A stretch of 63,995 nucleotides of DNA, counting the filler, from Licmophora abbreviata (Eukaryota): NCBI GenBank assembly GCA_900291995.1. It is 28 parts of 28 records of this genome, joined end to end, with 100 filler letters (N's around TTAATTAATTAA, not from the genome) between each part and the next. Parts side by side here need not be neighbours in the genome. Positions count along the whole stretch, not along the records: positions 1 to 1,195 come from OLMU01005455.1; positions 1,296 to 4,392 come from OLMU01005456.1; 26 more parts are not named here. One strand, 5' to 3'. This document shows positions 1 through 12,052 of this stretch, piece by piece; position 1 is the first letter of the stretch; each line of letters starts with the position of its first letter. Under the pieces are notes generated by a model. It was not told where the DNA came from and searched no databases. It saw only the letters and a program-made list of their open reading frames with translations. A program made the position numbers and the translations under genes.

Positions 1-1459
1 CCAAGACCATGAACATGTTGGGAATCGCCAACAGTGCAGTTGGTGCTTCAGACTTCCATAACATTCTAGGCGGAGCCGAGTTTGCTTCTGACTTCACCAA
101 GATTTTGACGGAAGTGGAAGGATTCGACAAGCTAATTGACTTTATCGAGAATCCCAGCACGCTGAAGAAGAAGCGCGCCATTATTGCCTTGGGCGAGAAG
201 ATTGCTGGGCTTCGTGACGCCAAGCGCGATGAAGGCGGTGATCTGGTCCTGACGAATAAGCCTCGACGTAGAACGAGCTATGCACGTCTTGTGCAAATTT
301 TCCAGAGTCTCCCTTCTCTTGCTGGCGCAAGCTCTGATGACTCGTCGTCAGATTCCGAGTCGGATGCCGAGGAGGTATGTCAGGGTGCTGATATGCCACT
401 TGTGCCGATACAAAGTTGATTAGTTCCCCTACTCACCATGTTTCCTTCCTACTTCACCATACAGACTCTCGAGGACTTGACTAGCGAGAGAAAAAGAATG
501 ATGCGCCAGTTCCGTGCCAACTTCCGCGAGCAGCCTGCTGCGACGACGCGGTCGATTTTGTCTTTCCTGACTACCATCAACAAGGAGATTGTTGCGGCCA
601 AGGCCATGTTCCTCGCCTACTCGGATCCCTTCGAAAAGTACCGCGCCCTTCTCTTCGAGTACGCTCATACGCTCGGACACGGAGTGGAGGCCTTTGCCAA
701 CGACCTCTACTTGAAGGCTCGTCAGGAGGGTGTCGCCATTCCAACGGATGCCCTTCGCCTCCATGGCCAGTGCGTCGGTATGGCAGTGTTGTGGGCAGGT
801 GAAATGTCCAAGAACCTCGGAAAGCTTGAGGGTGAGGGTTACACTTTGCATCAGTCGTTCCCGTATCTCTTCAACCGCGCCGGTGGCTTCTCCTTTCAGC
901 CTCTCCGCAACCTATGTGACGACCTCGGTGTCGACAAGGAAGAGTTCTGTGAACGTGTCCTGCAGGTCGTCCGTCGAGACAACAAGCGTGGATACTGCAC
1001 GTGCTCCGGGCCAGACAAATCTGTCGACCAACTCGTGACATGCCGCCCCGGCAAGATGCTTCGAAGTGACGACTCTAATGCCGAAGTGCGCTACTTGGTG
1101 GAGGTCGACGAGAACTGGCAGAAGGATGTACTGAGTATGGCCTTCGACGGTCACTTTGCAAGGTCGCCGACATTCGCAACGGTGAGCTCGTCTTTNNNNN
1201 NNNNNNNNNNNNNNNNNNNNNNNNNNNNNNNNNNNNNNNTTAATTAATTAANNNNNNNNNNNNNNNNNNNNNNNNNNNNNNNNNNNNNNNNNNNNGTCAC
1301 TTTGACAAGGTCGCCGACATTCGCAACGGTGAGCTCGTCTTTGTGCCCTCCAATGGATCCTTCACCAAGAGAAAACTCCTGACATCGAGCAGAGACGTTG
1401 CCAAACAGATTCGCTCGCGCTTGTTGGCTGCCTATGCCGCTGACGATCAGTCATTGTAG
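1..1459 (+). CDS. Sugar-phosphate cyclase (DHQS superfamily), 2-deoxy-scyllo-inosose synthase (BtrC)-like; 5' part lies outside the window
   Basis: ORFs 9-419 and 438-1247 join in frame through a GT-AG intron at 375-464. Motifs: IVAAKAMFLAYSDPFEKYRALLFEYAHTLGHGVE, LHGQCVGMAV, RRDNKRGY. The frame resumes after the linker (overlapping contig end) and stops at 1457-1459. Confidence 0.75.
1196..1295. other. Artificial scaffold linker (44 N + TTAATTAATTAA + 44 N); first of 27 identical linkers
   Basis: The same 100-nt unit, with stops in all six frames, recurs at 4393, 9187, 11938, 13043, 14275, 15562, 18397, 21372, 23842, 25579, 26771, 28144, 30955, 32278, 33636, 34803, 36269, 38314, 39462, 42173, 48379, 51127, 52880, 56217, 57358 and 59022. 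Confidence 0.98.
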
Positions 1460-1779: not shown

Positions 1780-3065
1780 CTACATGCTATCCCAGATTCC
1801 ACTCTGCACTCCCCAAACTTGCTCCGCTGACTTCAAAAATCCCTCCTTCTCTTCCTCGATCAAAGGCAACGGCAACACCCGTCGCACCCCCGTCGCTCCG
1901 ACGTTGCACGGCAAACTCAAAAAGACATCCTTCTCGATTCCGTACAATCCCCGCACGCATGTACTCACGGGCAGGATGGACCGGGTGTCGCTCAAGATGG
2001 CTTGCGCAATATGCGCCGCACTCAAACCCACCGCCCAGTTGGTGTAGCCCTTCAAGGCAATGACATCGCCGGCACTCTCCACCACCTCACGGTGCATGGC
2101 CTTGTGCGTCTCATTGGATGTTTCGCCCGGTTTCAAGAAGGGAATACCTCCGACGCGGACCGCCGACCAGACGGGAATACTGCTGTCCCCGTGCTCGCCG
2201 ATAATGTAACCATGCACGGACTTGGAGTCAATGTCGAGTGCCTTGGCAATGAGGGAGCGCAAGCGCGAGGAATCCAAGCAGGTGCCGGAACCAAAGATGC
2301 GTCCGGCCGGAATGGACGGTCCGGCGATCTTGGCTGCGACGGCGGTCATGATGTCACAGGGATTGCTAACGATACAGATGGGAGCGTCGGGAGAATACTT
2401 CAAGACTTGAGGAATGATCATCTTCATAATGGCGACATTGCGTTCGACCAGACTGAGACGGGACTCTCCGACCTTTTGGGCAACGCCAGCAGTAATAATG
2501 ACCAGATGCGAGTCGGCTGAGATGCTGTAGTCGTTGGAAGCTTCGATGCGGACGCGTTGGTGAAAGGCGGATCCTTGACGAAGATCTTTCGCTTCGCCTT
2601 CGAGTTTGGACTTATTGACGTCGACCAGGGCAAGGGTTCCGGCGACTTCGCGGGTCAGCATGGCAAAGGCCTGAGCAGGGGGAGGGAAGATGAGAGGGAC
2701 TGAATGTGAGAACTCACGCAAAAAATCACACAAAAATCAAAAAGTTTTCAAACGAAAAAGTGCCCCCTCTATATACTTACAATGGCCATTCCAACTTGAC
2801 CGCATCCAACCACGGTGACTTTCTTGTGCTTGAGCTTGCCATCTCCGGCGATATCCTTGACATCCTTGACTGGAATTTCCTTGTCGAAAGGAATGGGAGC
2901 CGAACTGTCCTCGATGCGAAGCGAGTGGAAAAAGTCCCGAAACAAAGCTTCCGGGTCGTGGTCGGCCGTCGTCAGGGAACTCTCAGTGCGTAAATGAGAC
3001 ATGGTGCAGTGTAGTCGAGTGGAGTGGAGAAGAGAAGAACTGCGATACCCAAGGATGCGTATCAT
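1780..3065 (-). CDS. LDH: L-lactate dehydrogenase, two exons (intron 2671-2780); start at 3065 or 3002
   Basis: VTVVGCGQVGMA Rossmann motif, TAGVAQKVGESRLSL with the LDH-specifying Gln, VSNPCD, GSGTCLDSSR, GEHGDSS, KGYTNWAVGLS. Confidence 0.92.
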
Positions 3066-3447
3066 CCTTGTTTCAAAGATCAGCAGATGTTTTTTTGTGT
3101 CCGCCTTCGCTTTCGTGGCGAGGGTTCTGGTTCGCTTTGTGCGCGGAAGAAGAATGAACCGAATCTGTTCGAATCTGATTCGGAGCGTTCGCATCAAAAT
3201 CTACTCTTTCTTTTTCTCACTAAAAAACAAAGCATATTTCTGGGTAAGACGCGGGGGAGTGTAGAGCCAGCCGTCGCTCGTTTGTGACTGCTTGTGTCTG
3301 ATGGGTGCGAATTGTGAAACGAAATCGGTATGATACATACACGCGAGATGCTGCGATTAAGGTCCCAACGTTGTAACCGTGAGCTACTGGAAAAGCATAA
3401 TCTCGTGCATATCATACATAGATCCATGTTGTACAAGACGTACTTAT

Positions 3448-4392: not shown

Positions 4393-4659
4393 NNNNNNNN
4401 NNNNNNNNNNNNNNNNNNNNNNNNNNNNNNNNNNNNTTAATTAATTAANNNNNNNNNNNNNNNNNNNNNNNNNNNNNNNNNNNNNNNNNNNNGTGCTGGT
4501 GTAAGGTATACTATCATGACGACAGTACATGCCTGACCATCGCTGTTGCCTCCACCCTCCACTGCGCTAGAAGAACGTTCGTTCCTGAACTAGATATTCC
4601 GCTAGAGCTGGAAGTCCAGCACATAGATCAAGCTGCCTCAGGCTACATTCCAGAGAAAC

Positions 4660-7987: not shown

Positions 7988-8602
7988 CTACAGGACGAAG
8001 ACTAGCAAGGAAAAGCCAAGCAAGATGGCACATTGAAACTTGGCCGAGGCGACACCGTCACTGGTGACCTCTGGTTCACCGTCTGTACTTGGCATTTCAC
8101 TCGGCATCATTTCACCACTGTTTGGCATTTCACTCGGGGCTGCCGTCGATTCATCCCAATCGGTCAATGGAATAGAATCCCACAGCTCTTCAAAATAACA
8201 TAGCTGCACAGCCGCAGTCTCCTCCGTCTCATTCAGCTGCATCCACGAAAGAGAATCGGATGGCGGGGGTTCGACAACCCCGATCCAGCTACCAGCTGTC
8301 CATCCGAGAGCAGCCCAGTGCTGTTGTACTTCCTCCGCGGCGAGACCTTCCCAACCGTATCCGATATAGTGATTCACCCAGCAGTCCCAAGTCTCCTGCG
8401 TGAAACCAAGTTGTGTGACACCGAATTGCTCCACACCGAGATCGGCATAGGCCGCATCCTCGAGCAGGTAAGTTCCAGGATTATTCCAAGTCACTTCCAC
8501 GTAAGCAAGGGACGTCTGTGCAGTTATTTGGACAGCTGGATCGAGATCCCTCCATGGTATATATCGAAACGCAGGAACAGGGTACGGAAACTCAAGCGCC
8601 AT
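7988..8602 (-). CDS. Acidic Trp-rich repeat protein with hydrophobic C-terminus (possible GPI or membrane anchor)
   Basis: Four repeats of about 30 aa with pattern W/YxxL...LG/A-Y/F/W-xxxxW, then PSEM repeats and a C-terminal hydrophobic tail. The start may be 8602 or 8674. Confidence 0.55.
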   Translation of the reverse strand: MALEFPYPVPAFRYIPWRDLDPAVQITAQTSLAYVEVTWNNPGTYLLEDAAYADLGVEQFGVTQLGFTQETWDCWVNHYIGYGWEGLAAEEVQQHWAALGWTAGSWIGVVEPPPSDSLSWMQLNETEETAAVQLCYFEELWDSIPLTDWDESTAAPSEMPNSGEMMPSEMPSTDGEPEVTSDGVASAKFQCAILLGFSLLVFVL

Positions 8603-8926
8603 GGTGGTGGTGGTGGTGGTGGTGGTTGCACATAGTGAGATGCTGTGCTGTTTCGAAGCATCTATGGGATGCAAAGTAATAGAGAGTGTTTAAAACGGCA
8701 GACGGACAGGCAGAGATCACTAGTGACCTCTTGGTTTTATACTCCGATGGACCTCGTGCTTTTGATGGTCCGACGCGCGTCTCGCGCTCCGTGACCAAAA
8801 TGAGAACCTTGAAACTCTGAGCACCGATGCGAACCCAAACTCAACACATTCAAGACGGATCTTGTCTCACAAAATCATCGACAATCACATCATTTCTTCT
8901 GATTCATCTCACTTCCTCTTTCTACA

Positions 8927-9186
8927 ATGATGAACGCCTTCAAACCCCTCCTTACCCGCACAGCAGCTCGTCGTTTTGCAACGGCTGCCTCTCCACACGG
9001 CGCAGTTCCGGTACGTGCCTTACTGTGCTGACTTTTGGGATCTCATGCCCATCGGCGAGCCCGAATGCGAACCAATACCAAAGAAAGAATCGCTCTAGAC
9101 TCATCGCAACAAGGCACTCACAACTACTCCCCTTCTCTCTCTCTCTCTCTCTCCCACGCTCCAGTCTCTCGCAAAGTACAACTTCA
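8927..9186 (+). CDS. 5' fragment of a gene with a mitochondrial-type presequence; remainder lost in gap
   Basis: MMNAFKPLLTRTAARRFATAASPHGAVP, then a probable GT-AG intron (about 9010-9163) containing a (CT)n tract. Confidence 0.4.
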
Positions 9187-9390
9187 NNNNNNNNNNNNNN
9201 NNNNNNNNNNNNNNNNNNNNNNNNNNNNNNTTAATTAATTAANNNNNNNNNNNNNNNNNNNNNNNNNNNNNNNNNNNNNNNNNNNNCAAGCAATCGACGT
9301 TCTGTTTCTAGTAGGTACAACCAGAGTTTTCCATCTTGGCTTCTTCTGTTCTCTTTCCGGGCAGGCTCAGTTGTTGATTAAAGACTTTCA

Positions 9391-11937: not shown

Positions 11938-12052
11938 NNNNNNNNNNNNNNNNNNNNNNNNNNNNNNNNNNNNNNNNNNNNTTAATTAATTAANNNNNNN
12001 NNNNNNNNNNNNNNNNNNNNNNNNNNNNNNNNNNNNNTCATCATCAGCTTGC

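Follow-up and report, generated by a model that had tools for sequence, protein, structure and literature searches.

A spliced gene of Licmophora abbreviata belongs to a multi-domain algal family related to bacterial 2-deoxy-scyllo-inosose synthases

What kind of enzyme does an alga make from a spliced gene whose product carries the motifs of a bacterial antibiotic-pathway cyclase? The question is raised by positions 3-1459 of a 63,995-nt stretch of DNA from Licmophora abbreviata (GCA_900291995.1), here called the window, in which 28 parts from 28 records of the genome are joined end to end. The initial annotation of this stretch read the gene as a 2-deoxy-scyllo-inosose (DOI) synthase (DOIS) like BtrC of Bacillus circulans; known DOI synthases are bacterial and belong to aminoglycoside antibiotic pathways. 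We find that the encoded protein has at its core a sugar phosphate cyclase from the dehydroquinate-synthase superfamily, and that the family to which it belongs is very probably a eukaryotic derivative of the bacterial DOIS-like branch. This family is not an ordinary BtrC, in that it has added domains, a missing arginine, and a sister form fused to a TLC membrane domain. The evidence consists of observed homology and fold, of a catalytic set that is conserved, and of the place of the family in the tree and its arrangement of domains.

A spliced gene at the left end of the window

The window carries the 3' half of the gene and aligns with residues 453-856 of an 856-amino-acid (aa) homologue, P0014, by tblastn. 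The same alignment places the NAD-binding half of the protein upstream of base 1, outside the window. The features of the gene are as follows.

3-1459, plus strand: 3' half of the cyclase gene, encoding the C-terminal ~47% of the protein, with the 5' half beyond base 1
3-374, plus strand: exon, open at the left window edge, collinear with P0014 from residue 453 to about 565
375-464, plus strand: 90-nt GT-AG intron (GAG/GTATGT ... CATACAG/ACT) with an in-frame TGA at 417-419
465-1157, plus strand: exon for the return helix of an insert and for the catalytic domain at the C-terminus (metal and substrate), with 59-83% identity to at least 120 homologues
588-689, plus strand: active-site motif IVAAKAMFLAYSDPFEKYRALLFEYAHTLGHGVE, with Lys at 603-605, the DOIS-type Glu at 657-659, and His at 666-668 and 678-680
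759-788, plus strand: LHGQCVGMAV, with His 762-764 as the third metal-ligand His of the superfamily (H679 in P0014), a role that we assume from DHQS (3-dehydroquinate synthase) and BtrC structures
972-995, plus strand: RRDNKRGY, the C-terminal DOIS-type motif, where true AroB has DKK
1158-1297, no strand: assembly artefact, a duplicated contig end with a 1-nt deletion (1158-1195) followed by a linker (1196-1295)
1298-1459, plus strand: last 53 codons (HFDKVADIRNGELVF...AADDQSL) and TAG stop (1457-1459), the post-gap copy agreeing with homologues

Frame 3 of the plus strand is open from base 3 to the TGA at 417-419 and open again from 420 on, and removal of 375-464 deletes this stop while preserving the frame. 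The first exon encodes the end of an N-domain helix (KTMNMLG...), the conserved loop GASDFHNILGGAEFASDFTKI, and then the first helix of the insert with its Ser/Asp-rich tip. When the full-length homologues P0001, P0004, and P0014 are aligned by tblastn, each gives one collinear match from base 3 to ~1160 and a second at 1298-1444, and all three are gapped at the intron site, within a length-variable Ser/Asp-rich linker. The splice is predicted from sequence and homology; none of the RNA contigs from four runs that were placed on the stretch bridges 375-464, and none of 12 RNA runs contained at least half of the sampled words of the stretch. Bases 1-99 are matched exactly by a contig from a marine metatranscriptome (run X11, record 4), which extends 95 bases further upstream. 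This match is no more than a hint that the gene is transcribed, but it shows that public data contain the missing 5' part. The three peptides quoted in the initial annotation are found at 588-689, 759-788, and 972-995 in the frame-3 translation of 420-1247. Its canonical 90-nt GT-AG intron is borne out by the splice signals, the in-frame TGA, and the collinear alignment of homologues, and its claim of a eukaryotic gene likewise stands, the gene being spliced, nuclear, and that of a diatom-like alga.

The break at 1158-1297 belongs to the assembly and not to the gene. The linker at 1196-1295 is artificial (N44-TTAATTAATTAA-N44), and the same 46-47 bases stand on both sides of it; the copy before the gap is one base short, which creates a false frameshift, and the copy after the gap reads HFDKVADIRNGELVF... 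like the homologues. The segment that follows (1298-1459) has 50-64% identity by tblastn to the C-termini of the same three homologues and corresponds to a C-terminal beta-hairpin and helix extension that is absent from the ~380-aa bacterial enzymes. The same linker occurs in at least nine further places (e.g. 4393-4492, 9187-9286, and 11938-12037), with 2377 N across the window, and because the window is stitched from many small contigs, gene order across linkers is untrustworthy unless checked. This patchwork of small contigs and artificial linkers is what could favor bacterial contamination or an assembly chimera as the source of the gene. Such an origin is nevertheless hardly credible given 1) the spliceosomal-type intron with an in-frame stop; 2) closest relatives of 80-83% identity, which come from diatom genomes and transcriptomes; 3) a eukaryote-style split LDH/MDH gene on the 3' contig piece; and 4) a closest bacterial protein no better than E 1.7e-5.

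Kinship with bacterial DOIS-like proteins

The protein belongs to a large and tightly conserved algal family. A search with window exon 2 (231 aa; E<=1e-3) matched 156 proteins of 406-2000 aa, and the 120 listed share 59-83% identity over 95-100% of the query; among the matches listed, members are mostly 750-950 aa long, and the family can be described as one of ~800-950 aa with a typical size of ~850 aa. The E value to the best homologue (1.2e-121) rules out a chance match. Named members come from diatoms (Chaetoceros, Dactyliosolen, and Eucampia), a bolidophyte (Triparma), and dinoflagellates (Prorocentrum, Zooxanthella, and Pelagodinium). An Atlas search brought up generic DHQS_C clusters and added no taxon range. 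In the tree described below the window sequence clusters with diatom sequences, and therefore the label "alga" is right and "diatom" is likely. An alignment of 15 sequences is conserved along nearly its full length, with AKAMFLAYSDPFEKYRALLFEYAHTLGHG identical in 15/15, and PF01761 was detected in all 15 full-length members scanned. Rather than a BtrC-sized enzyme of recent acquisition in a single alga, the gene represents an ~850-aa multi-domain family of diatoms, bolidophytes, and dinoflagellates with a stem of 4.76 changes per site.

Outside this family, the nearest relatives are bacterial and DOIS-like. A phmmer search of 1.84 billion representative proteins with the window part as query gave 70 matches, which beyond the family and its fragments jump to bacterial proteins of ~380 aa starting at E 1.7e-5. 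All ten bacterial relatives that were read carry EYGHT, together with DNKRGY (8), DNKKGY (1), or DNKRGH (1), and 11/11 bacterial relatives score below the aroB cut-off. A profile of these ten retrieves more than 3,400 bacterial proteins, many of them named DOIS by NCBI, and the genome loci of this wider family include known aminoglycoside producers. The Streptoalloteichus tenebrarius copy sits between genes for a Zn-dehydrogenase and a GT4 glycosyltransferase, an arrangement that we take to be the pattern of a 2-deoxystreptamine cluster. A separate bacterial DOIS-like protein (P0168, 640 aa) is fused to a family-2 glycosyltransferase domain.

The motifs that were named at the outset as dividing DOIS from DHQS do so in practice. 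Across five bacterial genomes, the AroB proteins that exceed the cut-off have LN.GHT and DKK in 5/5 cases, while the sub-cut-off paralogues of the same genomes have (F/L)EYGHT and DNK(R/K)GY in 7/7 cases. The BtrC motif as initially given (AK..D.YEK..LIFEYGHTIGH with DNKRGY) was also confirmed. When compared with solved structures, the family profile matches BtrC best (E 2.4e-20), followed by the best DHQS (7.3e-16), the EEVS ValA (0.0067), and DDGS (0.072).

Folds were compared with an AlphaFold model of P0014, for which an alignment of 96 rows was used (mean pLDDT 91.0, pTM 0.91). Foldseek gives BtrC (2gru) as the top match at 2.5e-14, with DHQS next, and VIA-align superposes residues 257-810 on BtrC with a Z of 22.5 and a root-mean-square deviation of 2.3 A over 348 residues; a DHQS is level with BtrC at Z 22.4, and EEVS and DDGS follow at Z 19.6 and 18.0. 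The two-domain DHQS fold, comprising a Rossmann NAD-binding domain and a helical metal-binding domain, is present in the model, and the window encodes the second domain only.

A maximum-likelihood tree of 46 rows and 380 columns, built with a careful search, unites the family in one clade (support 100/100). The sister of this clade is a bacterial protein (98/86), and both lie within a group of 18 rows (98/94). A bacterial DOIS-like clade that excludes the family appears in 0/200 bootstrap trees, and a split with support of 100/100 divides the family from the six AroB rows. Two observations support the kinship with DOIS that was initially proposed: BtrC is the best solved match by profile and by fold, and the family nests among bacterial DOIS-like proteins in this tree.

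The residues on which catalysis would depend are retained without exception. Among 15 bacterial DOIS-like proteins, 66 columns are conserved at a level of at least 87%, and we compared these with 81 family sequences in P0014 numbering. Identical in 81/81 family and 15/15 bacterial sequences are GGG..GN, D397, K403, N418, E450, K453, K625, E636, E644, H647, H651, H679, and DNK (751-753); D633, Y645, H708, and DNKRGY (751-756) are likewise kept in every family sequence (n=81). The window itself shows K, E, E, H, H, H, and DNK of the catalytic and metal set. In the alignment to BtrC residues 220-258, its Glu codon GAG at 657-659 (LFEYAHT) pairs with FEYGHT, opposite E243.

The same comparisons bear on whether the protein is simply the shikimate-pathway DHQS of the alga, as the database names would have it. 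JGI and UniRef name members "3-dehydroquinate synthetase" (an entry from Chaetoceros tenuissimus is named "2-deoxy-scyllo-inosose synthase"), although these labels of DHQS or DOIS reach the family through automatic transfer. The fold offers this identification some comfort, as the highest of the Z values of the P0014 model against DHQS (20-22.4) ties with that of BtrC. It is nonetheless very improbable: five full-length members reach 50.9-72.4 bits on the aroB model (TIGR01357) against a cut-off of 305, and the window part 14.3 bits; the Asn of LN.GHT is Glu here, and DKK gives way to DNKRGY; and, counted from HT, the family has Ala where the RxLLN motif of AroB has Arg, with its own Arg one position further back. 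The separation of AroB in the tree points the same way.

Several observations weigh against reading the family as a DOIS, the fold tie with DHQS among them. About a third of the 66 columns differ in the family, including N144S, Q141K, N186T, and G244A. The FR of the (F/Y)RG motif, a region between GGG..GN and PTT that lies upstream of the window and was read in homologues alone, is deleted in 80/81 family members (A3 alignment). Of the sequences caught by a pattern search, 4/4 AroB and 16/16 DOIS-like proteins have RG and a 31-residue spacing; the 8/8 family members checked have a 29-residue spacing and lack RG. The Arg of this motif in DHQS presumably binds the substrate phosphate across the dimer, in which case the family binds phosphate or assembles its subunits differently. 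Taken alone, the window part scores 22.9 bits on DHQS_C, below the Pfam cut-off of 27.6, and has BtrC as its best solved match at only E 4.6e-4. The tree holds no EEVS, EVS, DDGS, aminoDHQS, or EboD/DEIS rows; its bacterial rows nearest the family were selected as the best matches of the family and have long branches; and because the stem to the family measures 4.76 changes per site, a change of function is quite possible. Diatom and dinoflagellate members share about 65% identity, a tightness unusual for secondary metabolism, and the gene has no pathway partner at its side in the window.

These points feed a serious rival, namely that the family is a sugar phosphate cyclase with a substrate or product other than that of DOIS, which we hold to be a real if minor possibility. 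In its favor stand the loss of the phosphate-clamp Arg motif, the many second-shell changes, and the long stem. A precedent is provided by EboD, a DHQS-like protein that was predicted to act on sedoheptulose 7-phosphate in the accessible text of one study (PMC5133447) and that in fact uses mannose 6-phosphate according to the accessible text of a later review (PMC12904256); sequence-based substrate calls in the superfamily have proved wrong before. Against a changed substrate, the Glu at the DHQS-Asn position and DNKRGY make up the DOIS pattern and are invariant, and every one of the nearest relatives beyond the family is DOIS-like. TIGR04425, whose coverage of EboD is a guess, gave no protein over its cut-off in searches that took in 66 bacterial genomes (5 plus 61 Pseudomonas) and 14 control genomes.

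The best locus of the TIGR04425 searches was L108, in a Pseudomonas genome, which was considered as an ebo operon and rejected in favor of a sugar-nucleotide/lipopolysaccharide-type cluster. Its gene at 8034-9143 (minus strand) is a third kind of DHQS-like gene, with LNFGHT and DKK and 294 bits on TIGR04425. The neighbors encode a DegT aminotransferase, sugar epimerases/dehydratases, a nucleotidyltransferase, GT2 glycosyltransferases, and a short-chain dehydrogenase, and the locus is apparently not of the shikimate pathway.

Domain architecture, genomic context, and candidate reaction

The architecture of the full protein is read from homologues, since the window carries only the last 47% of it. 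Three modules are added to the cyclase core of P0014. The first is an N-terminal alpha/beta domain (about residues 45-240), which is Rossmann-like. This domain gave no meaningful recurring Pfam match (E<=1), no PDB sequence match, and no usable Atlas relative, and by fold it returned only generic Rossmann or periplasmic-binding-protein-like matches (Z 8.5-9.3) that possibly reflect just a common arrangement. The second is a coiled-coil insert (about 483-600), a long helical hairpin between the two cyclase domains; in the model its helices span 483-539 with a disordered tip at 542-570, and the intron in the window falls at this tip. The third is the C-terminal extension after the core, with strands at 812-825 and a helix at 838-855.

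A sister form of about 1150 aa has a multi-pass membrane domain of the TLC (TRAM/LAG1/CLN8) type at its N-terminus. The domain is detected by Pfam in P0060 and P0070, and P0057 and P0060 are collinear with P0070 end to end at 73% and 57% identity. The fused arrangement also occurs at loci L128, L130, L133, and partly L154, on both genomic and transcript-like metagenome contigs. The TLC fusion is genuine and hints at a connection with membranes or lipids. A different member (P0125, 823 aa) ends in a Cupin_8 domain after leaving the family sequence mid-domain and resembles a chimeric gene model.

Such additions would fit a protein that has lost its cyclase function and that, on the scaffold of a cyclase, acts in structure, regulation, or sugar sensing, or simply as an NAD-dependent dehydrogenase. 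The very high cross-phylum conservation combined with the three modules (N-terminal Rossmann-like, coiled-coil hairpin, and C-terminal extension), the existence of the TLC fusion, and the loss of the conserved Arg would all suit such a role. We consider it quite improbable, as the catalytic and metal residues shared with DOIS are identical in 81/81 sequences, which is hard to explain without catalysis, and the NAD-binding GGG..GN motif is retained.

On balance, we lean towards an active NAD+- and metal-dependent cyclase that makes a DOI-type carbocycle from a hexose 6-phosphate, a prediction made from sequence features. The upstream half, seen in homologues alone, would bind NAD+, and from the half encoded in the window would come the catalytic Lys, the DOIS-type Glu, and the His residues that bind the metal. 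The substrate would be a hexose 6-phosphate without a carboxylate, most simply glucose 6-phosphate, which would first be oxidised; phosphate elimination, reduction of the intermediate, and ring closure by aldol condensation would then yield a 2-deoxy-inosose-type six-carbon carbocycle. Activity, substrate, product, and pathway are thus predicted properties of the family. The N-terminal domain, coiled-coil insert, Arg loss, and TLC sister form suggest that substrate handling, assembly, or location is unlike that of BtrC.

Gene neighborhoods were surveyed for partners in such a pathway. A metagenome scan found 51 loci with relatives of the gene, and 61 open reading frames (ORFs) taken from the flanks of 14 of the longer ones included no aminotransferase or glycosyltransferase. 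The adjacent aminotransferase or glycosyltransferase for which the initial annotation advised looking is therefore found neither in the window nor on the contigs of 14 relatives, and its aminocyclitol or antibiotic reading is without support; no aminoglycoside-type neighbors were seen. The compact DOIS layout, in which an enzyme of ~370-390 aa lies beside aminotransferase, dehydrogenase, and glycosyltransferase genes, is not seen in the family.

Within the window, the contig piece with the 3' end of the cyclase gene also carries, in tail-to-tail orientation, a lactate/malate dehydrogenase (LDH/MDH)-family gene on the minus strand (Ldh_1_N and Ldh_1_C; 1780-2736 and 2769-3200). It is apparently split by a short intron, and its upstream ORF has a GxGxxG start. 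Further along the window are SET, SGT1-like, PP2C, rhamnose-mutarotase-like, ferredoxin-type, MFS, DEAH-helicase, and M23 genes, whose adjacency across linkers is uncertain. The window ORFs gave no match to the flank ORFs of the relatives.

Elsewhere, a phytochelatin synthase gene adjoins the cyclase gene on four distinct diatom-like contigs, on varying sides and strands:

L109:4653-6161: phytochelatin synthase
L111:4823-6496 (= L112): phytochelatin synthase
L113:7497-8915: phytochelatin synthase
L131:9399-10787: phytochelatin synthase

The contigs come from related diatoms and the block includes two syntenic conserved genes without a Pfam family; phytochelatin synthase was considered as a functional partner and set aside, the wider syntenic block among related diatoms being read as ordinary synteny. 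Other neighbors are more scattered. A short-chain dehydrogenase gene (L148:6502-7425, minus strand) lies head-to-head with the cyclase gene at a distance of 339 bp on a single contig, a fatty-acid hydroxylase gene (L132:8017-8871, plus strand) lies just downstream of it on another single contig, and a gene with a VTT domain (Tvp38/TMEM41-type) is found downstream on two further occasions (L113:13410-14459 and L137:4188-5351, both minus strand).

A broader and rather unlikely proposal is that diatoms, bolidophytes, and dinoflagellates share a route that resembles primary metabolism and leads from hexose phosphate to a deoxy-inosose carbocycle, with the ~850-aa enzyme as its first step. It may take either of two conjectural forms. 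In the first, the family may be the entry enzyme for the osmolyte 1,4/2,5-cyclohexanetetrol, which is reported from Chaetoceros, Nitzschia, and Isochrysis in the accessible parts of two sources (PMC5334607, PMC7998644). On paper, this compound may be regarded by our own reasoning as DOI minus one more hydroxyl, reached via dehydration and two ketone reductions; no paper on cyclohexanetetrol biosynthesis was found among the literature matches listed. In the second, the carbocycle may be attached to a membrane lipid, as hinted by the TLC fusion and by the single neighboring cases of fatty-acid hydroxylase and short-chain dehydrogenase.

A strongly conserved multi-domain relative of DOIS is present in two of the ocean's main phytoplankton groups. 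If the enzyme is active, these algae build a six-carbon carbocycle by an untraced route, with osmolyte synthesis, lipid head groups, and signaling as candidate roles, and the gene would be a handle for finding the product in model diatoms. Counts of shikimate-pathway genes may also be affected: Bromke 2013 gives at least three "DHQS" annotations per diatom genome, and such counts may include enzymes that are not DHQS.

Relation to known sugar phosphate cyclases

The accessible text of a 2026 review lists DOIS, EEVS, EVS, DDGS, DHQS, and DEIS and contains no mention of a eukaryotic DOIS-type enzyme (PMC12904256). No published treatment of the family, or of an algal DOIS enzyme, was found in the searchable literature, which stops short of subscription journals and closed supplements; prior work on the family may exist in such journals.

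Among the known cyclases of stramenopile algae, EboD is another DHQS-like enzyme, which converts a hexose 6-phosphate to a C6 deoxy-inosose (PMC12904256, accessible text). It differs in being plastid-encoded within a six-gene operon that includes a UbiA prenyltransferase (PMC5133447, accessible text), whereas the present family is nuclear, about 850 aa long, and without such an operon; this distinction is drawn from descriptions of the two. The sedoheptulose 7-phosphate cyclases (EEVS ValA, PDB 4p53; DDGS, PDB 5tpr) have the same fold, as reflected in their Z values, but their profile matches are far weaker than that of BtrC, and neither EEVS nor DDGS is among the 70 phmmer matches of the window part. 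This group of cyclases has known members in eukaryotes.

AroB (TIGR01357) shares the superfamily, the fold, and PF01761 with the family, and presumably also the same NAD-binding and metal-binding framework by role. It differs in having Asn and DKK at the positions of the Glu and DNKRGY of the family, and in a shifted register of the RxLLN Arg, and it forms a separate clade.

BtrC (PDB 2d2x/2gru; TbmA/NeoC-type) is the closest solved enzyme by profile, Foldseek, and VIA-align, and the family shares with it the Glu at the DHQS-Asn position, D.(F/Y)EK, DNKRGY, GGG..GN, and the His and Lys set. In contrast to the family, at about 850 aa with three added modules, BtrC has about 370-390 aa; the family also differs by the deletion of FR in FRG and by its long stem. 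Bona fide cluster enzymes of the S. tenebrarius and Micromonospora type form a separate subclade in the tree, and unlike BtrC-type systems, the algal family is eukaryotic, spliced, and located outside aminoglycoside clusters.

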